A stretch of DNA of 64,000 nt from an uncultured Fimbriimonadaceae bacterium. Lineage in GTDB: Bacteria > Armatimonadota > UBA10988. The translations under genes and the position numbers were made by a program. Within the stretch, counting starts at the first letter, position 1. Each line of letters opens with the position of its first letter. Of this stretch, positions 2,436-12,072 are shown in pieces. Under the pieces are notes generated by a model. That model was not told the DNA's origin. It saw only the letters and a program-made list of their open reading frames with translations, and made no database searches. The stretch is from the NCBI GenBank assembly GCA_964405335.1, contig CAYONP010000005.1, forward strand, positions 9,202 through 73,201, read 5' to 3'.

Positions 2436-3272
2436 ATGCGGTCGCGGGCGAGGTCACTCGGGGTGGTCGGGTTGGCACTCTTCGGCGTCGTCGCGGCGGC
2501 GGCTCAGGACCGGCCGCAGCGCGGCGCGCGGGGAGCCATGCCGGCGATCACCGGCGAGATCCTCGACGTCGCCGACGAGTTCATCACCCTCCGCCCGTTG
2601 GCCACGCCCGACGCGGGTGCGGTGCGCGGTGGGCGCGGTGACGGCGACGGCGGCGTGTTCGGTCCCGCGCGCAGGCAGGCCGGTCCCGGCGGCGAGGTGA
2701 CCATCACGCTCGGCGGCGAGACCCGTTACCGCATTCTCGACGAGGGCGATGAAGACGCTCTCGAAGCTGATTTGCTCGCCGCGGCGCTTGGCTGGGCCGA
2801 CGACGATCCCGAGACCATGCTGGCCCGCGCGGTGGCGGTCTATCGGGCCGGCGACGAGCCGGCCGACGTGGTGCCGCTGCTGCTCGGCTCGCTGCGCCAC
2901 CTGGCTCAGGCGGCGGAGATCGGCCCGCGGCAGGGCCAGGGTCGGCCGCAGCGGCCCGAGTTCGTGTTCGGCACCATCGACACGCCGGCGCCGTTGACCA
3001 TCGAGCGGCTCGGTCGCGAAGAGCCCCGGCTGGTCGACGTCGACCTCGATCCCGAGGCGAAGGTGCTGTGCATCGATGAAATCGAGCCGGACGAGCTCGA
3101 GATCGGCCAGTGGGCCGTGGTCACGCTGGTCCGCCCGGAAGGCCGCGGCGGGCAGCGTGGGCGGCAGCCCGATTTGACGGCGGCGATGGTCATGATGACG
3201 CCGCCGATTGAGATCCGCGAGTTCGCCGGGCGCGCCGGAAGGCAGCCCGGTGATCGACCACCGGCACAATAG
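2436..3272 (+). CDS. secreted acidic hypothetical protein
   Basis: Signal peptide MRSRARSLGVVGLALFGVVAAAAQ. The body is Asp/Glu-rich. The antisense frame 2454..3269 is Arg-rich junk. Confidence 0.5.
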   Translation: MRSRARSLGVVGLALFGVVAAAAQDRPQRGARGAMPAITGEILDVADEFITLRPLATPDAGAVRGGRGDGDGGVFGPARRQAGPGGEVTITLGGETRYRILDEGDEDALEADLLAAALGWADDDPETMLARAVAVYRAGDEPADVVPLLLGSLRHLAQAAEIGPRQGQGRPQRPEFVFGTIDTPAPLTIERLGREEPRLVDVDLDPEAKVLCIDEIEPDELEIGQWAVVTLVRPEGRGGQRGRQPDLTAAMVMMTPPIEIREFAGRAGRQPGDRPPAQ

Positions 3273-3299
3273 CTCCTCCTTCCCGGTTGGTCACCTCCT

Positions 3300-3335
3300 C
3301 CGCCGCGGCGCAAGCCGCGGCGGCCTTCTTTGTGG
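3300..3335 (+). terminator. intrinsic terminator-like hairpin (CCGCCGCGGC-GCAA-GCCGCGGCGG followed by CCTTCTTTGT)
   Basis: A perfect 10-bp GC stem with a GCAA tetraloop, followed by a T-rich run. It lies between convergent genes and is oriented for the + strand transcript. Confidence 0.45.
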
Positions 3336-3347
3336 CCCGCGGAGCGG

Positions 3348-4520
3348 TCAAGCCAGGCCGCTCTGATCGAGGAGCTGGAGGAGCTTGGTCCGCGTCTCGC
3401 GGACCAGCATCTGCTCGCGGCGGAGCAGGCGCGCTTCAATGGCCCGACGGCGTGCCGCGGCGGCGCTGTTGGGCAGCGTCACGCCGGCCACCGAGGCGCC
3501 CGCCAGGGCAAGCCCGAGCCAGGCGACGGTGCGGCCGGGCAGCGCACTCGGCCACGGCGGCGGCCAGCGGCGGCGCGAGCGCAGCCAGCCATAGGCGGCG
3601 GTGAGCAAGCCGACCAGCGTGCCGCCGCCGGCGACGGCGATGGTCAGCCCGGTGGCGCGCTCGAAGTCGTGAGCCAGCCGCCGCTGCGCGGCCAGCAGCT
3701 CGAGCACCACCGGCGTGAGCTCGTGTCGGGCAGCGGCCGCGGTCACCTCGCCGAGGACCCGCTCCCGGCCGCGCAGGGCCATCATCACCGCGCTGACGCC
3801 GCCGAGCAGCACGCTCGGCCGGTCGGGCCCCGAGGCGATCTGTAGCCGGCCGATGGCGGCCATCCGGCCCAGCGGCTCGGCTGGCTCCTGGTTCCGTTGC
3901 CGGGCCGAGCGCGCGTCGGCATAGAGGTGCTCGAGCAGGTAGCGCGTCGCATCGGCCTGCCGCTCCGGCCACAACTCAGAGAGCGAGGCGCCGAGCCACG
4001 GCGCGGCCTGATCGACCGCCTCGGCGACCGGCGAACCATACGGCGTGTATCGCGTCGCGGCCAGCGCCTGGGCCAGCACGCCGGCTCCGGCTTGGCGGTC
4101 GCCGGTGCTCAGCCGCGCCGCGGCCAGGGCGAGGTGCGGCACGGCGTTATCGGCATCGAGCCGGGCGGCGGTGGCGAAGCCGCGCCGGGCATCGAGCGGC
4201 AGGCCACGCCGGCGGCCGAATCCGCCGGCGTGCGACAGGCCGTAGGCGTAGTTGATGGCGGGATCGTCCGGGGCGCCCTGGGCCGCCTCCTGGTAGGCGT
4301 GCGCGGCGGTCAGCGGGCCGGCGGCATCGACCTCGTCGGGCGCCACGCCGAGCGCCCAGCCGTAGGTCGCCAGGTGTGTCGGCTCGCCGTCCTCGGCGGC
4401 GCGGCGGAAGCAGCGCAGGACGACCCGGTCGACGCTGAGTCGGCGCGTCAGGCGACGCAGGCCGAGGTCGTACGGATCGCCCTGAAAGCGCTCAAGCAGC
4501 GCCGCCGGATCCATCGTCAC
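3348..4520 (-). CDS. TPR-like / membrane-anchored hypothetical protein (last gene of psp-like array)
   Basis: Helical repeat-like N-terminal half (AHAYQEAAQGAPDDPAINYAYGLSHAGG...). The C-terminus is hydrophobic with 2-3 predicted TM helices. It overlaps the PspA paralog stop by 29 nt, so the start codon is uncertain. Confidence 0.5.
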   Translation of the reverse strand: MTMDPAALLERFQGDPYDLGLRRLTRRLSVDRVVLRCFRRAAEDGEPTHLATYGWALGVAPDEVDAAGPLTAAHAYQEAAQGAPDDPAINYAYGLSHAGGFGRRRGLPLDARRGFATAARLDADNAVPHLALAAARLSTGDRQAGAGVLAQALAATRYTPYGSPVAEAVDQAAPWLGASLSELWPERQADATRYLLEHLYADARSARQRNQEPAEPLGRMAAIGRLQIASGPDRPSVLLGGVSAVMMALRGRERVLGEVTAAAARHELTPVVLELLAAQRRLAHDFERATGLTIAVAGGGTLVGLLTAAYGWLRSRRRWPPPWPSALPGRTVAWLGLALAGASVAGVTLPNSAAAARRRAIEARLLRREQMLVRETRTKLLQLLDQSGLA

Positions 4521-5448
4521 CCTCCGCGGCCGGGGCTGGTTCGGGCGCCGGCGCGGGCGGCGCGGCCGGCCCGCCCTTCATGCGGCGGAGCTCGTCCTCG
4601 ATGTCGGTGTCATCGGTGTCGCGGTAGCGGCGCTCGATTTCGCTGAGCATCCGCTCGCGCTCGATGGTCAGGTCGCGGCTCGGGCGGTCCCACGGGCTGC
4701 GGTACTCGACCAGCTCGGCCCGCTCGCGGCGCCGCCGGCGCGGGCGCGGCTCGTCGCTCTCGTCGCGCGGCACCTCGGCGCGGCCGAGCGTCGGCTCGGG
4801 CAGTGGCCGCTCGCGCTCGTCGGGCTCCAGCCGCCCCACGTCGGCGGCTTCGTCCTCGAGCTCGGACTCCGCCTCGGCGTCGACCTCGTCGAGCACCTCT
4901 CGCTCAATCACCTCGGCCCGGATCCGTGCGTCGAGCTCGTCGTCGGAATCGTCGAGCGGCGGCGGATCGAGGCCGAACTCGCGCCGGTACCGTTCATACC
5001 GCTCACGCAGCGCGGTGACCCGCTGGCGTGTGCGCAGAAAGTCGCTGCGCAGGCGCAACTCCTGCAGCTTGTCTTCGAGTTCGTCGATGTGGCGTTCGAG
5101 CATCGCGATCAGCTCTTGATGCTCGCTCCACTGCCGCTCGAGGATCTCGACCCCGCGGATGGCCCGCCGGCGGCGGCGGACCAGGTCGCGGCCGAGGTCG
5201 TCGTTGCCCGCGTCGACCGCCTGCTGCGCCCGCTCACGCAGCCGCTCGGCGTCGCGGCGCTCGGTATCCATGCGGCTCTTCAGCCGCTGCTCGTCGCGCA
5301 GCGCGACTTCGAGCTCGCTGCGCGCTTCGGCCAGGTCGCTTTCGAGCAGCGACAGCACCTCGTCGACGCCGTCGCGCTGCGGCGGGGCGTGGAGCAGGTC
5401 GTCCATCCCCTCGCGGATTGCCGCGCCCAGATCGCGGAAGAAACTCAC
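4492..5448 (-). CDS. PspA/IM30 (Vipp1) family protein, diverged paralog, GTG start, long acidic Pro-rich C-terminal tail
   Basis: N-terminus VSFFRDLGAAIREGMDDLL followed by coiled-coil heptads (…AQQAVDAGNDDLGRDLVRRRR…) typical of PspA. It lies 2 nt downstream of the stronger PspA paralog. The tail reads PAAPPAPAPEPAPAAEGDDG. Confidence 0.7.
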   Translation of the reverse strand: MSFFRDLGAAIREGMDDLLHAPPQRDGVDEVLSLLESDLAEARSELEVALRDEQRLKSRMDTERRDAERLRERAQQAVDAGNDDLGRDLVRRRRRAIRGVEILERQWSEHQELIAMLERHIDELEDKLQELRLRSDFLRTRQRVTALRERYERYRREFGLDPPPLDDSDDELDARIRAEVIEREVLDEVDAEAESELEDEAADVGRLEPDERERPLPEPTLGRAEVPRDESDEPRPRRRRRERAELVEYRSPWDRPSRDLTIERERMLSEIERRYRDTDDTDIEDELRRMKGGPAAPPAPAPEPAPAAEGDDGSGGAA

Positions 5449-5450
5449 GG

Positions 5451-6362
5451 CTAGAGCTCGACCCGGCGGCCCCAGCCGCCGCCGTTGTCATCGTCCTCGT
5501 CATCCTCGGGCGCGGGCCGCTGCAGATCGGCCGGCGGCTTCTCGGCCGGCTCTTCGGCCGGCGGGTCGGCCGGCGCCTCCAGCTCGCGGCGGCGCGAACG
5601 GCGGCCCTCGGACGGCTGCTCGGCGGCGCGGCCGGCCCGCTTGCGCATCTCCTCGAGCTCGATATCGACCTGCAGGTCGGCCTCGCTCTGCTGCCGCGAA
5701 CGGCCGGAACGCCGGCGGCCGGTCTCGCTGTCGATCCGCTCGGCCAGCTCGCGGTCGGGCTCCAGGTAGTCCTCAATCTCGCGCGACGCCTCGGTCCGCG
5801 CCTCGAGGTCTTCGATCTTGCCGGCCATCTCGTCGAACTTGTCGAACGCCGTCTGCTCGGTCAACGAGCCGGTGTCGATGCTCCGCGCCCTGCCGCGCCG
5901 GCCCTCGATCTGGCCCTGCGCGCGCTGCCGGTAGATGTCCGCCTGCAACGTGCGCCGCTTGTCGCGCGCCTCGCGGAGCCGCGCCTCGAGCTGCTTGTAC
6001 TGCTCGCGGAGCTTGTCCACCGCGTCCTGCTGCTCGGCCAGTTGCGTGTCGTACTCGCCGGCCAGGTCTTCGTAGGTGCGCTTCTTGCGCAGCGCGTCGC
6101 GGGCCAGGTCGTCCTTCGCCGCGTCGACCGCCTGCTGCGCCTTGCCCGCCCACAGACGGGTCAGGTCGTCGGCCTCGTCGAGCTGCCGGCGGAGGCGCTT
6201 CTCATCGGCCAGCGCGCGGATCAGGTGCTGCTTCGCCTGGCGCAGCGCATCCTCCATGTCGGTCAGGTAGAGGTCGAGCTGCTTCTCGGGATCCTCCGCC
6301 GACGAGAGCAAATCGTTGATGTTCGACTTGATGATCCTGCCCAGCCGCTTGCCGAAGCTCAC
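5451..6362 (-). CDS. pspA: phage shock protein A / IM30 family protein
   Basis: SFGKRLGRIIKSNINDLLSSAEDPEKQLDLYLTDMEDALRQAKQHL and KAQQAVDAAKDDLARDALRKK match the PspA N-terminal helix and core. GTG start with GGAAGGAG RBS 6 nt upstream. The longer ATG-start ORF (to 6431) begins with Arg-rich junk. Confidence 0.8.
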   Translation of the reverse strand: MSFGKRLGRIIKSNINDLLSSAEDPEKQLDLYLTDMEDALRQAKQHLIRALADEKRLRRQLDEADDLTRLWAGKAQQAVDAAKDDLARDALRKKRTYEDLAGEYDTQLAEQQDAVDKLREQYKQLEARLREARDKRRTLQADIYRQRAQGQIEGRRGRARSIDTGSLTEQTAFDKFDEMAGKIEDLEARTEASREIEDYLEPDRELAERIDSETGRRRSGRSRQQSEADLQVDIELEEMRKRAGRAAEQPSEGRRSRRRELEAPADPPAEEPAEKPPADLQRPAPEDDEDDDNGGGWGRRVEL

Positions 6363-6427
6363 CGCCGTCTCCTTCCGCCGCCGTCCCGCCGCTCTGCCTT
6401 GGCCACCGCGCCGCGCGATCCTCCCCG

Positions 6428-7171
6428 TCACTCCTCACAACGCTTCAGCCGCAGCCGCTGCTCCAGCCCATCGACGCGCACCTCGCGACGGCGCAGCAGC
6501 TCCAGCAGCACCGGCGCGTTGGCCACCAGGCCGAGCGGGCAGACCGACCCGCCGTCGAGGGTCAACATGCCCCACGCCGTGTCGGCTTCGCTGATCTCGC
6601 TCCACGGCCACTCGAGCCCCTCGCAGGCGAGGCCCATCGGGCCCACCTCGAGCGGCCCGAACCAGACCGTCTGCCCGCGCGCGAAGCGATCCAGCAGCTC
6701 CTCGCCCGTATTGTGATGCACCGCGGCCACCACGCGCTGGAGCAGCGGCTCGAAACCCTCCAGCTCGTCGTCGAAACGGAGCCTGCGCTCGCCCGCCTCG
6801 AGCACCACGCCGAGATAGAGCCGGTGCTCGCCCGGCAGCGGCAGCAGGCGCACCTTGGCGTCGAGGTAGAGCGCCTCCAGCTCGTCCCACCGGGCCTGAG
6901 CGATGCCCTGCAGCGCCGAGACGCGGAGACCATCTTGGTGGACCCAGACCACGCGCGTCAGCGTCGGGGCCAGATCGGCGATCAGCACGACCACCACCGC
7001 GGCGACGACCAGGCCGAACAGACCCGGCGTGAGCCGCCCACCGAGCCACTGCGCCACGGCGCTGAGCAAGACCAGGCCGGCCAGCACCGCCGGGATGGCC
7101 ACGCGGGACTTCCGCACGCGGTGGACCTCTTCCTCGGCGCCCAGTCCGGCCTCGTCGGTCGTCGCCGCCAT
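6428..7171 (-). CDS. 2-TM membrane protein, hypothetical (upstream partner of PspA pair)
   Basis: Two hydrophobic helices (IPAVLAGLVLLSAVAQWL and LFGLVVAAVVVVLIADL) then a soluble domain. The alternative frame 6435..7190 is Arg/Gly junk. Confidence 0.5.
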   Translation of the reverse strand: MAATTDEAGLGAEEEVHRVRKSRVAIPAVLAGLVLLSAVAQWLGGRLTPGLFGLVVAAVVVVLIADLAPTLTRVVWVHQDGLRVSALQGIAQARWDELEALYLDAKVRLLPLPGEHRLYLGVVLEAGERRLRFDDELEGFEPLLQRVVAAVHHNTGEELLDRFARGQTVWFGPLEVGPMGLACEGLEWPWSEISEADTAWGMLTLDGGSVCPLGLVANAPVLLELLRRREVRVDGLEQRLRLKRCEE

Positions 7172-7173
7172 GG

Positions 7174-7905
7174 TTACTCCTCAACCTCAAACAACGACTG
7201 CTGCACCGGCTCGGGTCCCACTGCTTCGCTCGCTGTCACCCGCGGCCGGCCGCGCAGCCGCGCGGCCATCGCGCGGGCGGTGTCCAGGTCGGCGGCCAAC
7301 TGGCGCTTCAGCTCGTCGAACTCGGCGCCATGCTTGCGCAGCAGGAAGGCCGGGTGAAGCACCGGCATCACCCGCGCGGGCCGGTACGGATGCTCATCGA
7401 ACCACTTGCCCCGCTCGCGGGTGATGCTCACCGCCCGACCCAGGATCAGCTCGGCCGACGGCGCGCCGATGCAGACGATCACCCGCGGGCGAATCAGCGC
7501 CAGCTCGGCGTCGATCCATGCGCGGCAGGCTTCGATCTCGTCGGGCTCAGGGTCGCGGTTGCGGCCCCGGCCGCCCTCGGTCCGGGTCCACGGCCGGCAC
7601 TTGACGATGTTCGTGATCCAGACATGCTCGCGCCGGATGCCGAGCTCGCTGAGGCACTCGGTCAGCAACTGCCCCGCCCGGCCGACGAACGGCGAGCCCT
7701 CGCGATCTTCCTGCTCGCCGGGCGACTGGCCGGCGAGCAGCATCGGCGTGTGCGGATTGCCCTGGCCGAAGACCACCTGCGTGCGATCGGCGTGCAGCCG
7801 GCAGGCGGTGCAGGCCAGCGCCGCCTGGCGCACGGCGGCGAGGGTCGCCTCGATCTGTGACCGTTCGGTTTCGGGCACCCGCAACGGCTCCCGGCAGGCC
7901 GGCAC
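7174..7905 (-). CDS. uracil-DNA glycosylase, family 4 (UdgA-type, Fe-S)
   Basis: CTACRLHADRTQVVFGQGNPHTPMLLAGQSPGEQEDREGSPFVGRAGQLL and HVWITNIVKCRP are family-4 UDG motifs. GTG start. Confidence 0.8.
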   Translation of the reverse strand: MPACREPLRVPETERSQIEATLAAVRQAALACTACRLHADRTQVVFGQGNPHTPMLLAGQSPGEQEDREGSPFVGRAGQLLTECLSELGIRREHVWITNIVKCRPWTRTEGGRGRNRDPEPDEIEACRAWIDAELALIRPRVIVCIGAPSAELILGRAVSITRERGKWFDEHPYRPARVMPVLHPAFLLRKHGAEFDELKRQLAADLDTARAMAARLRGRPRVTASEAVGPEPVQQSLFEVEE

Positions 7906-7932: not shown

Positions 7933-9021
7933 TTACCACGCCGGCGCCGGGCCGTCGAACGCCAGCTCGATGCCGAGCACCCACAGCTCGGGCCCGCCGG
8001 CCGGCCAGAGGTCGAGCCGCACGGCGTCCTTTTCGGTGGTGATCACCGCCTCGCAGCCGGCGGTCGTCGCCCGCTGCACCACCCCGGCGATGTTCTCCTG
8101 CGTGTAGCGGTGGTGGTCGGGAAACGGCTCCTCCTGCACCGCCGCCGCGCCGAGCCCGGCCACCGTGGCGAAGAACGCGCCGGGATTGCCGATGCCGGCC
8201 ATGGCCGCCACCCGCCGGCCGGCGATGCGACCCAGCTCGAGGCCCGCGCCGGAGGGAAAGTGGGTCAGTCTCACCGGCGCGTGGCGCGTCAGGTAGACCG
8301 GCGCCTCGGGCGCCAGCGCGCGCAGCCGGGCGGTCAGCTCGCCGAGCGGGCAGGCGTCGGGATGGTCGGTACGGGTAATCCAGATCTGGTCGGCCCGCCA
8401 CAGCGCCGCGGGCGGGTCGCGCAGCGTGCCGTCGGGGAACAGCTCGCCGACACCGAACGGCTGCGTTGCATCGAGCAGGACGATGTTCTCGTCGACGGCG
8501 AGGCGGCGGTACTGGAAGCCGTCGTCGAGGATCAGCACCCGGGCATCGAATCGCGCGACCGCCGCCAGCGCGGTCTTGCGCCGGTCCTTGCCGGCCAGCA
8601 CCGGCACGTCGCCGAGCCGCTCGGCCAGCAGCGCCGCCTCATCGCCGATGTCGTCGACACTGAGCCGCCGCTCCAACCCGTCGTGGACCGTGTTCACGCC
8701 GCGCAGCCGCTTGCCGCCGTGGCCGCGGATGAGCACCGCCACCCGCTCGCCACGGTCGCGGAAGTGACGGGCTAGGTAGGCCACCGCCGGCGTCTTGCCC
8801 GTGCCGCCGACGGTCAGGTTGCCGACCGAGATGACCCGCGCGTCGACCTCGAGCGGACGCACCAGCCGCAGGCCGTAGGCCGCCTCGCGCAGGGCCAGAC
8901 CCAGGGCGTAGCCGCGCGCGGCCAGCCACAGGCCGGCCCGGCTCGGCGAGCGGCCGGCCACCGTGGCGAACCACCAGGCCTCCAGTGGCGCCGGCGCCGG
9001 TCTGGCGGTCGGGTCAGGCAT
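7933..9021 (-). CDS. lpxK: tetraacyldisaccharide 4'-kinase
   Basis: VISVGNLTVGGTGKTPAVAYLA P-loop and LDDGFQ motif. It overlaps kdtA by 8 nt. Confidence 0.8.
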   Translation of the reverse strand: MPDPTARPAPAPLEAWWFATVAGRSPSRAGLWLAARGYALGLALREAAYGLRLVRPLEVDARVISVGNLTVGGTGKTPAVAYLARHFRDRGERVAVLIRGHGGKRLRGVNTVHDGLERRLSVDDIGDEAALLAERLGDVPVLAGKDRRKTALAAVARFDARVLILDDGFQYRRLAVDENIVLLDATQPFGVGELFPDGTLRDPPAALWRADQIWITRTDHPDACPLGELTARLRALAPEAPVYLTRHAPVRLTHFPSGAGLELGRIAGRRVAAMAGIGNPGAFFATVAGLGAAAVQEEPFPDHHRYTQENIAGVVQRATTAGCEAVITTEKDAVRLDLWPAGGPELWVLGIELAFDGPAPAW

Positions 9022-10318
9022 CGATCAGCTCGAGCAACGCAGACGCCGTGCGCTCGGCCGCGCCCCGGCTCGAGTCGACCGCCGCCCGGGCCCGAGAGCC
9101 GGCCGCCGCCAGCTCGGCGGGCGCGTCGAGCAGCGCCAGCGCTTGTTCGGCCAGCTCGCCGGCATCGTGCACGAACCAGAGCGCGCCGGCGCGTTCGAGC
9201 AGCGCCACGCTGTCGCGGAAGTTGGCCACGTGCGGGCCGACCAGCACCGGCTTGCCCTGCGCCGCGGCCTGCATCACATTGCTCCCGCCCAGCGGCTCGA
9301 GCGTCCGGCCGACAAAGACCACCGTCGCCACCGCGTAGAGCTCGCTCAGCTCGCCGATGGTGTCGACCACCACCACCGCCTGCTCGGCCAGCGAGCGAGC
9401 CGCGCGGCCCGGCAGTTCGGTCCGCAGCACCACCGCGTGACCGGCGCGCCGGGCCGCCTCGACCACCTCGGCCGAGCGCTCGATCAGCCGCGGCACGAGG
9501 ATCAGCCGCGCGGCCGGATGCCGCCGCCGCACCGTCTCGAACGCCGCCAGCACCGCCTCGTTCTCCCCCGGCGCGGTACTGCCGGCAAGCAGCACCGGCG
9601 CCTCGGCGGCCAGACCGAGCGTCTTGCGCCACCAGGCCAGCCGGGCGGAATCGACCGTGGGGAACGGCTCGTCGAACTTGACGTTGCCGGCGACGACGAC
9701 CCGCTCGGCCGGCGCGCCGAGCGCGATCAGGCGCTCGCGGTCGAGCGCCGACTGCATCAGGCAACGGTCGAGCTGCGGCAGGAAGGCGCCGTAGAACCAG
9801 CGCAGGCCGAACGAGCGGATCCGCCGCAGTGACCGGTCGGAGATGCGGCCGTTGGCCAGCGCCACGCGCACGCCGGCCGCGCGGCAGCGGCGGATCAGGT
9901 TCGGCCACAGCTCGGTGTCGATCGAGCAGAACAAGTCCGGCCGCAGCGCGGCGATGACCCGATCGACCAGCCAGGGATAGTCGAACGGCACGTAGAAGGT
10001 GCCGGCCAAGCCGGGTAGGCGCGCCGCCAGATCGCCGCCCGAGCGGGTCCAGTGCGAGATGACCAGCACCGCGCCGGGCGCCCGCCGGCGCAGCGCGGCG
10101 ACCAGCGCGCCGGCGGCCTGCACCTCGCCGACCGAGGCGGCGTGGATCCAGATCACCCGCCGGCCGCGGCAGGCGTTGACCAGCGGCGCGGGCAGGCGGC
10201 CGAGACGGTTGAGCCAACCCTCGTGGTGCCGCCGGCGGAGCATCCGCTGCACCTGCCCACCAAGCGCCAAGAGCGGCGCGGCCAGGATCCCGACGACGTT
10301 GTAGAGCAGATAGAACAT
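9014..10318 (-). CDS. waaA: 3-deoxy-D-manno-octulosonic acid (Kdo) transferase
   Basis: IWIHAASVGEVQAAGALVAALR, the GT30 N-terminal signature, and a GT-B C-terminal half. It shares 1 nt with the msbA start. Confidence 0.85.
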   Translation of the reverse strand: MFYLLYNVVGILAAPLLALGGQVQRMLRRRHHEGWLNRLGRLPAPLVNACRGRRVIWIHAASVGEVQAAGALVAALRRRAPGAVLVISHWTRSGGDLAARLPGLAGTFYVPFDYPWLVDRVIAALRPDLFCSIDTELWPNLIRRCRAAGVRVALANGRISDRSLRRIRSFGLRWFYGAFLPQLDRCLMQSALDRERLIALGAPAERVVVAGNVKFDEPFPTVDSARLAWWRKTLGLAAEAPVLLAGSTAPGENEAVLAAFETVRRRHPAARLILVPRLIERSAEVVEAARRAGHAVVLRTELPGRAARSLAEQAVVVVDTIGELSELYAVATVVFVGRTLEPLGGSNVMQAAAQGKPVLVGPHVANFRDSVALLERAGALWFVHDAGELAEQALALLDAPAELAAAGSRARAAVDSSRGAAERTASALLELIDA

Positions 10319-12072
10319 CAGCCGGTCTGACGCGACTGCAGCAGGTAGGCACGCTGGTAGTGACCCGGCAGGCGGAGCAGCTCTTCGTGCCTGCCGGTGG
10401 CGACGATGCGGCCGTGCTCGAGGACCACGATTCGGTCGGCCCGCAGGATGGTGCTCAGCCGGTGGGCGATCATCAGCGTGGTGCGGCCGGCCATCAGCCG
10501 CTCGAGCGCCTCTTGGACCAGCGCCTCGCTCTCGGAATCGAGCGACGAGGTGGCCTCGTCGAGGATCAGCACCCGCGGGTCGCGCAGCACGGCGCGGGCG
10601 ATGGCGATGCGCTGCGCCTGGCCGCCGCTGAGCTTGGCCCCGCGCTCGCCCACCTCGGTCTGGTAGCCGTCGGGCAGCTCGGCGATGAACCCCGCGGCGT
10701 TGGCCACCTCGGCGGCGCGAGCGATCTCGCCGGCCGAGGCACCGGGCCGGCCGAAGGCGATGTTGAACCCGATGCTGCCGCGGAACAGCACCGTCTCTTG
10801 CGGCACAATCCCGAGGTGGCGACGCAGCGAGGCGAGAGTCACCTCGCGCAGGTCGTGGCCGTCGAGCCGAACCGCGCCGGCGGTCGGGTCATAAAGCCGC
10901 GGGATCAGGTTGGCCAGGGTCGATTTGCCGGCGCCGCTCGGTCCGACCACGGCCACGGTCTCGCCCGGCGCCAGCTCTAGGTCGATGTCGCACAGCACCG
11001 GCTCGCCCTGCTGATAGGCGAAGCTGACCCGTTTGAACGTCACCCGACCCTCGACGCTGCCGAGCTCGCCGGCAGCGGGCGCGTCGGCGACGGTGACCGG
11101 TGCGTCGAGCAGCTCGAACACCCGGTCGGCGGCGGTGAGCAGCTCCTCGGCCGCCACCCGCGCCCGGCCGAACTGCTTGAAGTTGGTGGTCATCAGCATC
11201 AGGCCGGTCAGCACACTGACGAACCGCCCGAGTTCGATCGAGCCGTCGCGGTAGAGCAACCAGCCGCCGAGCACGCCGAGCAGCAGCAGCCCGGCCAGGC
11301 CGGTGACATGCACCGTCGGCTCGACAAAGGCGCGCACCCGCACGGTGCGCATCATCGCCCGGCGGGTCTCGAGGTTCTCGGCCTCGAACCGCTCGACTTC
11401 CTGCGGTCCGGCGCCGAAGCACTGGATCACCCGCATGCCGCTGATGCTCTCCTGCAGCCGCGCGCTCAGGTCGGCCAGGGTCGCCTGCACCTGCGCCGTG
11501 TGGCGGCGCATGCGCCGGCCGGCGGCGTTGAGCAGCGGCACCATCACGGCCGCGGTGCCGAACGCGACGAGGGTCAGCGCGACGCTCTGGTAGAGCATGC
11601 CGGCAATGAGCAGCAGGATGGTCAGCGGGCAGCGCGCCAGGCGCGTCAGCTCGACGGTCAGGCGGGTCTGGAGCAGGTTCAGGTCGTTGGTCGCGCGGGA
11701 CATCAAGCCGCCGGTGCGTTCGCCCTCATAAAAGCTGAGCGAGAGCTGGTGGATCTTGGCGAACAGGTCGCGGCGCAGGACGAAGAGAACTTTCTGCGCC
11801 GCGTAATCGAAGCAGAAGTTGCCGCTGAAGTCGGCGATCGCCTGCGCCAGGCCGAGCAGCATCAGCAGGCGGAGCAGCGGGTAGATGCGCTCGAGGTCGA
11901 CACTGCTGCCGCGGGATTCATCGACCAATGGGGCGAGCAGCACCGCCAGGATCGGCTCGGTGGCGGCGCGTACCGCGACGGCGACCAGGGCCACGGCCAG
12001 GATCCAGCGCAGCGGCGTGAAGTAGCCGGCCAGGCGGCGGGCAATCGTGGCGTTCGCCGGCCGGGCCCTCAT
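10318..12072 (-). CDS. msbA: lipid A export ABC transporter, fused permease/ATPase (MsbA-like)
   Basis: Six-TM N-terminal domain. Walker A GPSGAGKST, signature LSGGQAQRIAIARA, Walker B LILDEATSSLD. Position within the lipid A cluster supports MsbA. Confidence 0.8.
   Translation of the reverse strand: MRARPANATIARRLAGYFTPLRWILAVALVAVAVRAATEPILAVLLAPLVDESRGSSVDLERIYPLLRLLMLLGLAQAIADFSGNFCFDYAAQKVLFVLRRDLFAKIHQLSLSFYEGERTGGLMSRATNDLNLLQTRLTVELTRLARCPLTILLLIAGMLYQSVALTLVAFGTAAVMVPLLNAAGRRMRRHTAQVQATLADLSARLQESISGMRVIQCFGAGPQEVERFEAENLETRRAMMRTVRVRAFVEPTVHVTGLAGLLLLGVLGGWLLYRDGSIELGRFVSVLTGLMLMTTNFKQFGRARVAAEELLTAADRVFELLDAPVTVADAPAAGELGSVEGRVTFKRVSFAYQQGEPVLCDIDLELAPGETVAVVGPSGAGKSTLANLIPRLYDPTAGAVRLDGHDLREVTLASLRRHLGIVPQETVLFRGSIGFNIAFGRPGASAGEIARAAEVANAAGFIAELPDGYQTEVGERGAKLSGGQAQRIAIARAVLRDPRVLILDEATSSLDSESEALVQEALERLMAGRTTLMIAHRLSTILRADRIVVLEHGRIVATGRHEELLRLPGHYQRAYLLQSRQTG

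Follow-up and report, generated by a model that had tools for sequence, protein, structure and literature searches.

Two diverged PspA paralogs and a dedicated TPR-fold protein encoded by a conserved gene triad in uncultured Armatimonadota

In a 64,000-nucleotide stretch of contig CAYONP010000005.1 (here called the window; contig positions 9,202 to 73,201), which comes from an uncultured Fimbriimonadaceae bacterium of the phylum Armatimonadota (GenBank assembly GCA_964405335.1), three consecutive minus-strand genes encode two paralogous proteins of the PspA/IM30 family (PspA1 and PspA2) and a protein, here called X, that combines a tetratricopeptide repeat (TPR) fold with two hydrophobic helices. 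This gene triad is conserved across diverged relatives. We interpret it, with moderate confidence, as encoding a lineage-specific PspA (i.e., ESCRT-III-like) membrane-maintenance module of three co-expressed proteins that divide the labor among them.

Within the ESCRT-III superfamily, bacteria are represented by PspA and Vipp1. These proteins polymerize via a helical hairpin and bind membranes via an N-terminal helix, and their C-terminal extensions tune assembly (PMC7619361, PMC12358876). In the proposed division of labor, PspA1 would act as the conventional effector, its basic N-terminal helix (alpha0) binding the cytoplasmic membrane and its full helical core polymerizing. PspA2 keeps the N-terminal helix and the hairpin, but its alpha0 is acidic, and its remainder is a disordered acidic stretch of about 100 residues plus a single conserved helix. 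It would have no membrane binding of its own and, on the model of two-subunit ESCRT-III, may be a modifier subunit that joins or caps PspA1 assemblies. X would be placed at the membrane by its hydrophobic hairpin while its TPR domain holds a tail motif, for which the C-terminal peptide of PspA1 (GWGRRVEL) is the prime candidate ligand, and would fill the role that PspB/C, LiaI, or PspM has in other Psp systems. The homologies, folds, gene coupling, strict co-occurrence, and motif conservation described below are observed; co-assembly, the division of labor, docking of a tail on the TPR domain, and a function in membrane stress are inferred from them.

Gene order and conservation of the triad

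The initial annotation of this DNA had placed two PspA-family genes at 5451..6362 and 4492..5448, 2 nt apart, and their coordinates, minus-strand orientation, and spacing are confirmed; the two bases between the PspA1 stop codon and the GTG start of PspA2 are CC. It had also reported that a TPR-like protein overlaps the second PspA gene by 29 nt. The order and the overlap stand, and the overlap is corrected to 23 nt because an ATG at 4514, which has a GGAGGG Shine-Dalgarno sequence 7 nt upstream and is the start taken by the gene callers, is preferred over the GTG at 4520. These tight junctions are kept in relatives: the spacing between PspA1 and PspA2 is 2 to 6 nt in six lineages out of seven, the exception being L012 with 48 nt, and PspA2 and X overlap by 20 to 35 nt in seven of seven. 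The spacing and the overlap suggest translational coupling of the three genes. Coordinates of all features are listed in Table 1.

Wherever the contig reaches, the order PspA1-PspA2-X is found, in a total of eleven diverged lineages (the window, L009, L011, L012/L013/L018, L014, L015, L016, L017, L019, L020, and L021; ~45 to 55% identity). PspA1 precedes PspA2 in all nine lineages whose upstream side is visible, and X follows PspA2 in all eleven. Since the triad recurs in this many diverged lineages, the arrangement is not due to chance. In every case where the source names a taxon, it is Armatimonadota; PspA2 forms 9 clusters in 5.8 billion proteins, the named ones being from Armatimonadetes and Fimbriimonadaceae metagenome-assembled genomes. 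Assemblies with the triad include GCA_016235455.1, GCA_020850355.1, JACPDV01, and JAANMV01. The X family comprises 10 clusters at 90% identity and, among 1.84 billion proteins, 13 full-length representatives at 50% identity; a single fragment of 137 aa adds to these, and all further matches in that set are confined to the TPR-like residues 55 to 153. Homologs of X lie directly after the PspA2 gene wherever the contig extends far enough, and neither PspA2 nor X was found outside the triad; this also holds for L019, which retains none of the other synteny. X is thus dedicated to the triad, and each of the three subfamilies is very small and restricted to these loci. A narrow-pattern scan of genome contigs with the X alignment returned one locus only and is not a species-level census.

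The conserved unit is smaller than first described. The initial annotation had proposed a quartet in which a protein with two transmembrane (TM) segments, encoded upstream of PspA1, is a dedicated part. This protein does have two hydrophobic segments and belongs to the DUF6585 family, and the PspA1-PspA2-X part of the quartet is kept. However, the DUF6585 gene is present in only three of nine lineages (the window, L011, and L015) and absent from the other six (L009, L012, L016, L017, L018, and L019); it is an optional accessory gene outside the conserved core.

Table 1. Features of the PspA1-PspA2-X locus and its surroundings (positions in the window)
Feature	Position	Strand	Remarks
PspA1	5451..6362	-	303 aa; canonical PspA/IM30 (ESCRT-III-like); GTG start; AGGAGA Shine-Dalgarno
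PspA1 alpha0 amphipathic helix	6303..6362	-	MSFGKRLGRIIKSNINDLLS; net charge +3
PspA1 tail past canonical PspA end	5454..5627	-	58 aa; variable Pro/Ala/acidic linker with conserved motifs
Basic motif RRSRRR in PspA1 tail	5586..5603	-	
C-terminal peptide of PspA1	5454..5477	-	GWGRRVEL-COOH
PspA2	4492..5448	-	318 aa; deeply diverged PspA paralog; GTG start
PspA2 core (alpha0 + alpha1 / alpha2-3 hairpin)	4978..5448	-	invariant RRRR..RG after hairpin tip
PspA2 acidic linker, residues 158-259	4672..4977	-	Pro-containing, disordered; pLDDT 42-63
PspA2 conserved C-terminal helix	4576..4671	-	LTIERERMLSEIERRYRD...IEDELRRMK; modeled helix 260-291, pLDDT 82-91
PspA2 variable end	4495..4575	-	27 aa, Pro/Ala-rich; pLDDT 45-61
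X	3348..4514	-	388 aa; TPR-fold domain, helical domain, two hydrophobic helices, C-terminal helix
X N-terminal TPR-like repeat domain	3975..4475	-	residues ~14-180
X hydrophobic helical hairpin	3471..3656	-	residues 287-309 and 328-348; loop RSRRRWPPPWP
X interhelix loop	3534-3587	-	WLRSRRRWPPPWPSALPG, residues 310-327
X C-terminal charged helix	3363..3467	-	modeled helix 350-384; pLDDT 79-95 by 10-residue block
DUF6585 protein	6428-7171	-	two TM segments and ~170-aa soluble domain
Family-4 uracil-DNA glycosylase (UDG)	7174-7905	-	
lpxK	7933-9021	-	
waaA	9014-10318	-	
msbA-like ABC transporter	10318-12072	-	
Hairpin	3300..3323	none assigned	10 bp, all GC; between convergent X and open reading frame 2436-3272

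The two PspA paralogs and protein X

Both PspA genes encode true PspA/IM30 homologs with relatives among the solved Vipp1 and PspA structures, which bears out the initial family assignment, including that of the diverged 4492..5448 product: against PF04012 (gathering cutoff, 33.9), PspA1 scores 142.1 bits (E = 2.5e-41) and PspA2 57.4 bits (E = 2e-15). PspA1 has the full alpha0-alpha5 helical core and can be aligned to solved PspA and Vipp1 structures. Its best solved relative is Synechocystis Vipp1, above E. coli PspA and Synechocystis PspA (PspA1 residues 5 to 199 to Vipp1 residues 4 to 190; phmmer, 105 bits, E = 7e-29), and the canonical PspA C-terminal motif is present at residues 232 to 245 (VDIELEEMRKRAG, resembling the usual ...EDELAALKA end). 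Orthologs of the PspA1 type form 21 clusters scoring >230 bits, after which the next score falls to 111 bits; alpha0 is basic in all of them (mean net charge, +2.8; n = 21 clusters). By analogy with studied PspA and Vipp1 proteins (PMC12358876, PMC7619361), we infer that this helix binds the membrane.

PspA2 is far more derived. It is 36% identical to PspA1 over the first 149 aa, and the alignment of the two profiles (hhalign; Prob, 98%; 33% identity) covers residues 1 to 139 only. An AlphaFold2 (AF2) model of PspA2 (overall predicted local distance difference test [pLDDT] score, 75.8) has helices at 2-20, 25-79, and 83-157, with pLDDT >90 for residues 30 to 160, i.e., the alpha1 / alpha2-3 hairpin, which is also the best-conserved part of the protein. 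The model has the ESCRT-III-type hairpin fold, and Foldseek matches it to Vipp1 and PspA structures (E = 1e-5 to 3.5e-3), among them Vipp1 7o3w (E = 1e-5) and E. coli PspA 4whe (target-normalized TM-score, 0.80). The profile alignment, the conserved alpha0 and hairpin-tip motifs, and these structural matches led us to reject the reading of PspA2 as a generic coiled coil misassigned by Pfam. Unlike the basic alpha0 typical of the family, that of PspA2 (predicted helix 2-20) has a net charge of -2, and it is acidic in all PspA2 orthologs (mean net charge, -1.7; n = 9 clusters).

A recent tandem duplication was considered as the origin of the pair and rejected, since a hidden Markov model of the PspA2 core scores PspA1 orthologs (21 to 52 bits) no higher than unrelated PspAs (30 to 55 bits). 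Because the PspA2 profile shows no preference for PspA1, the paralogs are either old or fast-diverged. Their distance bears on a different account of the locus, which we consider unlikely, namely, that the two proteins form separate homo-oligomers serving different stresses or membrane sites, that X scaffolds one of them or neither, and that their adjacency is inherited. The paralogs are indeed no closer to each other than to unrelated PspAs, all loci belong to a single clade, and cyanobacterial PspA and Vipp1 genes are often adjacent even though their functions are distinct (PMC11237479). However, the preservation of tight or overlapping junctions in nearly all lineages and the confinement of PspA2 and X to the triad, L019 included, argue against this account, and the acidic alpha0 speaks against autonomous membrane binding by PspA2.

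The C-terminal regions differ from their first description. The initial annotation had assigned to both paralogs acidic, Pro/Ala-rich extensions of about 80 to 100 aa. PspA1 does carry a tail, but its true extension is 58 aa, plus an insertion of ~20 aa; the long acidic stretch of PspA2 is also present, but it is mostly an internal linker (residues 158 to 259), which is followed by helix 260-291 and a 27-aa tail. The Pro/Ala/acidic stretches, which had been quoted as a notable feature, turned out to be the least conserved parts, and the informative elements are the conserved motifs embedded in them. In the PspA1 tail, pairwise identity is 0.17 to 0.21 in the linker, 0.59 in the RRSRRR block, and 0.54 to 0.97 in the C-terminal blocks with GWGRRVEL. 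In orthologs the basic motif has the form (E)R(L/R)S(R/Q)RR and is present singly or twice, and residues R254, S256, R258, and R259 are invariant (18 sequences). The C terminus is GWGRRVEL in 19 of the 21 ortholog clusters (DRRVEL and GRQLEL in the other two), and this peptide was not found elsewhere in the window or in the fetched loci.

In PspA2, a weak acidic helix (168-198) precedes a disordered segment (199-259; pLDDT about 42 to 72 by 10-residue block), and the net charge over residues 151 to 210 is -17. Pairwise identity is 0.02 to 0.44 up to residue 250 and 0.54 in the block 251-260, which carries the PWDRP motif; GEVPRP and PWDRPxR are the conserved islands of the linker. Helix 260-291 has the consensus ERExLLxxIERR...EL..MK, in which R264, I271, E272, R273, E286, and L287 are invariant, whereas the 27-aa end differs in length and sequence among orthologs.

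The region around the PspA genes has a G+C content of 72 to 77%, and the Pro/Ala/acidic stretches probably reflect a G+C content of 73% in unconstrained linkers. Pro/Ala-rich tails also occur on other proteins of the window (e.g., the UDG end and open reading frame [ORF] 119-688). Together with the poor conservation of the linkers, this would fit a locus that is an ordinary duplicated pspA with irrelevant low-complexity tails, a reading that we consider very improbable in view of the invariant GWGRRVEL, RRSRRR, and PspA2 helix 260-291 embedded in the tails, the presence of a tail in all orthologs, and the dedicated third gene conserved alongside. As judged from the pattern of conservation, the tails matter through these motifs and not through their Pro/Ala/acidic composition.

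Two further observations concern tails of this kind. Four PspA1 orthologs (P0057, P0059, P0060, and P0061) carry GERLSRRR twice with a variable Pro/Glu-rich spacer between the copies, which points to duplication of the motif inside the disordered tail. A separate PspA group (P0063-P0068; 274 to 277 aa; 100 to 111 bits), which is the next closest to PspA1, is extended differently: its C-terminal addition measures ~55 aa and closes with ...EEFAALDPxEQEELAxALAxLEAEEQQELQxKR. Tails are thus present on PspAs of other lineages as well, with unrelated motifs.

The charge of the PspA2 linker enters into another possible account, in which PspA2 is a nonpolymerizing regulator or chaperone that keeps PspA1 in a soluble or inactive state, from which it is released once X detects damage to the membrane. 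The regulatory function of E. coli PspA and IST1-type capping would be parallels to such a role. PspA2 may retain only alpha0-alpha3, its long disordered stretch, with a net charge of -17 over 60 residues, could bind the basic RRSRRR motif of the PspA1 tail, and the unit encodes no transcription factor. The account is purely inferential, and the best-conserved part of PspA2 is the hairpin that makes polymer contacts, which fits a polymer subunit at least equally well; we regard it as quite unlikely and favor PspA2 as a modifier subunit.

X matches no Pfam or NCBIfam family, and its scores against TPR models (TPR_11, 13.9 bits; TPR_19, 13.8 bits) lie below the cutoffs; weak profile matches to repeat proteins cover residues 55 to 153. 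Its AF2 model is all helical (pLDDT, 85.4; predicted template modeling score, 0.81) and shows a TPR superhelical fold that resembles peptide-binding TPRs such as those of HOP, Sti1, CHIP, and MamA. An Arg-rich segment (GGFGRRRxLPLxARRGFxxAARLDxDN) is conserved in the TPR-like domain, and N349, E360, and L363, toward the C terminus, are invariant. Helices 287-309 and 328-348 are uncharged and Gly/Ala-rich (Kyte-Doolittle 19-mer maxima, 1.64 and 1.71), and the loop between them contains three to four Arg and no acidic residues in 10 of 10 orthologs, being the most Arg-rich flank. We also looked for co-variation between the X TPR domain and the PspA1 C terminus: in L009, whose PspA1 ends in GRQLEL, X carries Gly instead of R101, a residue that is otherwise nearly invariant. 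This was dismissed, since L012 has the same Gly and a normal GWGRRVEL.

Several points weigh against the three-protein module proposed here. Since all loci come from one narrow clade, the conservation of gene order could in part be inherited synteny. PspA2 may lack the alpha4 and alpha5 helices used in PspA polymers, because its profile alignment stops at residue 139; the conserved helix 260-291 lies beyond that point. A recent duplication would favor co-assembly, and given that the PspA2 profile shows no preference for PspA1, the adjacency does not stem from one. The hydrophobic helices of X are marginal (mean hydropathy, 0.65 to 1.43 across orthologs), and the simple N-in/C-in topology expected of a protein with no signal peptide conflicts with the Arg-rich loop under the positive-inside rule; X may be something other than a conventional 2-TM protein.

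Neighboring genes and transcription signals

Upstream of PspA1, the DUF6585 protein matches PF20226 with 43.3 bits (cutoff, 27.7; residues 9 to 229 to model positions 13 to 243 of 249) and has two strongly hydrophobic N-terminal segments (Kyte-Doolittle maximum, 2.66). Its orthologs are only 32 to 34% identical, and searching metagenomes with the DUF6585 alignment, to see whether the family accompanies PspA elsewhere, gave no relative. The gene lies 2 nt after the UDG gene and 65 nt before PspA1.

Same-strand msbA-waaA-lpxK-UDG genes lie directly upstream of the triad in six of the nine lineages with a visible upstream side (the window, L011, L012, L015, L016, and L017). This recurrent synteny would suit a module serving lipid A/lipopolysaccharide export or outer-membrane biogenesis as part of an lpxA-msbA-waaA-lpxK string. 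We consider that role very unlikely: L009 has the UDG gene and no lipid A genes before the triad, the triad of L019 stands alone beside divergently oriented ABC permease genes with neither UDG nor lipid A genes, the intervening UDG is unrelated to the envelope, and in five relatives PspA1 follows a gap of 36 to 112 nt that contains -10-like hexamers. The link to the lipid A and UDG genes drawn in the initial annotation thus holds as to strand and frequent synteny and is not obligatory, and co-transcription with the lipid A genes is unproven, given the contexts of L009 and L019 and the -10-like hexamers before PspA1.

These hexamers are of the TAnAAT type (TAGAAT and TACAAT; TATACT in L016) and lie 24 to 60 nt upstream of PspA1 in the five relatives. 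Such hexamers are unusual in DNA of ~70% G+C; the upstream regions compared were those of the window (6363-6427), L009, L011, L012, L015, L016, and L019. The window region 6363-6427 is without one and contains a GAGGATC..CGCGGCGCG segment that is common to L012 and partly to L009. A sigma-70 scan of the window region yielded no site. An E. coli-like sigma-54 promoter before PspA1 was considered, as the window has one TGG-N10-GC match 42 nt upstream, and was dismissed: among the relatives only L015 has a match, at another position, and such a match is not meaningful at 73% G+C. A Shine-Dalgarno sequence (GGAGAC) upstream of PspA1 is kept in nearly all compared loci. Beyond the other end of the triad, the terminator-like hairpin at 3300-3323, which has a T-run on the plus strand only, likely marks the end of the transcription unit. 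No Rfam families or tRNAs were found in the window. PADLOC defense-system models matched none of the five proteins at E <= 0.01, and an anti-phage defense reading was dropped for lack of a match.

Other neighbors yielded side observations. At the C-terminal end of the UDG and its orthologs, a Pro/Ala-rich linker leads to Q-x-S-L-F-(D/E): the window protein ends in VQQSLFEVEE, and the other three (L009 6278-7003, L011 5516-6247, and L012 6239-6946) have the ends EQMSLFGDD, DQPSLFDA, and EQPSLFDDV. We take this end to resemble the bacterial beta-clamp-binding motif QL[SD]LF, and it suggests clamp-tethered uracil repair. Downstream of X and convergent to it, the plus-strand ORFs 675-2345 (556 aa) and 119-688 (189 aa) belong to no Pfam family and have homologs at like positions (L016 11674-12543, L017 11751-13250, L017 14649-14981, and L014 6627-6959), with identities to relatives of 32 to 35% for the 556-aa ORF and 57 to 60% for the 189-aa ORF. 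ORF 2436-3272 (278 aa) has neither a Pfam family nor a match in the fetched relatives. In L009, which is without DUF6585, two minus-strand YcxB-family (PF14317) genes (3068-3676 and 3898-4485) lie 2 to 4 kb upstream of the UDG-PspA locus.

Comparison with known systems

The locus shares with the classical Psp system (PspF-PspABC) a PspA/IM30 effector with an amphipathic N-terminal helix, adjacent dedicated membrane partners, and a presumed role in cytoplasmic membrane maintenance. It differs in having two PspA paralogs and, as a partner, a TPR protein of 388 aa that represents a new family. Neither PF06667 nor PF04024 nor an AAA+ activator was found among the four proteins or their immediate neighbors, and both paralogs score below the cutoff of the NCBIfam PspA equivalog (TIGR02977 / PRK10698; PspA1, 112.3; PspA2, 30.1; cutoff, 242.95). 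The initial description of a self-contained module without pspBCF therefore agrees with the data insofar as the conserved unit encodes no PspB, PspC, PspF, or Lia component, with the amendment that three genes, rather than four, form the core. As for the Lia system, the StressProtLiaH score is 69.3 against a cutoff of 380, and no LiaI or LiaF domain occurs in the neighbors.

Lineage-specific Psp partners have been cataloged, i.e., PspBC, LiaI, PspM/N, PspAA/AB, band-7/flotillin, and CesT-like proteins (PMC11237479). LiaI of the LiaI-LiaH pair, mycobacterial PspM, and Bacillus YdjG/H/I are small, lineage-restricted membrane proteins that are encoded next to pspA and anchor or recruit PspA (PMC11237479, PMC8581546), and X would be comparable to them. 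None of them is related to X in sequence, and the large TPR-bearing part of X (~280 residues) is presumed to be cytoplasmic because it lacks a signal peptide. The large comparative Psp study mentions no Armatimonadota and no TPR partner of PspA, and it notes a TPR-6TM protein beside bacterial Vps4-like ATPases only (PMC11237479). That protein resembles X in its fusion of TPRs to membrane helices and in its ESCRT-related context. By description, however, such proteins replace Snf7 and accompany an AAA+ ATPase, whereas X has two hydrophobic helices, two neighboring PspA genes, and no ATPase.

Cyanobacterial PspA and Vipp1 pairs likewise consist of two diverged, adjacent PF04012 genes, one with a C-terminal extension (PMC11237479). 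The present host is one of the Armatimonadota, without thylakoids; PspA2 has diverged much further than cyanobacterial PspA; and a TPR gene stands third. PspA1 is not a Vipp1/IM30 in the strict sense: a comparison of its tail with the Vipp1 C-terminal extension gave a nonsignificant local match only (score, -0.7), and its relatives are Armatimonadota, rather than cyanobacteria or plastids, where the source is named.

Most bacteria have a single PspA copy, and only the <10% of lineages with duplications could form heteropolymers (PMC7619361). In the literature searched, we found neither a bacterial PspA heteropolymer nor a tail-reading adaptor. A parallel is the two-subunit ESCRT-III (Asgard ESCRT-IIIA/B and the eukaryotic A/B types with MIM tails), in which two paralogous superfamily subunits are also encoded together and disordered C-terminal regions end in conserved short peptides that could recruit a partner, as in MIM-MIT recognition (PMC11804906, PMC7619361). 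By this analogy, a heteromeric PspA1/PspA2 pair is plausible. In contrast to those systems, the triad has no Vps4-like AAA+ ATPase or MIT domain, the candidate tail reader being the TPR protein with its predicted membrane helices; its subunits come from the PspA branch and not from the Snf7 branch, and their co-polymerization is unproven here. We advance only tentatively, and regard as rather unlikely, the stronger proposal of a two-subunit ESCRT-III-like machine whose assembly at the membrane would depend on recognition of tail peptides and in which X would read GWGRRVEL (and perhaps the PspA2 helix or acidic linker) and PspA2 would co-polymerize as a non-membrane-binding modifier, with no Vps4 ATPase. 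If true, bacteria would have converged here on an equivalent of the archaeal and eukaryotic A/B-type heteropolymers and of MIM-MIT recognition.

The locus is a compact, conserved candidate with differentiated subunits, opposite alpha0 charges, invariant tail peptides, and a single TPR partner dedicated to them. Should the three proteins interact as proposed, they would provide a simple, recombinantly tractable system for the ATPase-free recruitment and tuning of ESCRT-III-like polymers and would add a new partner family to the Psp catalog; if they do not, the locus is still the first description of a Psp repertoire in this Armatimonadota clade. X is new as a protein family, and the locus as a whole is most suitably grouped with the PspA/ESCRT-III-like membrane-maintenance systems, as a variant from a small clade of uncultured Armatimonadota.

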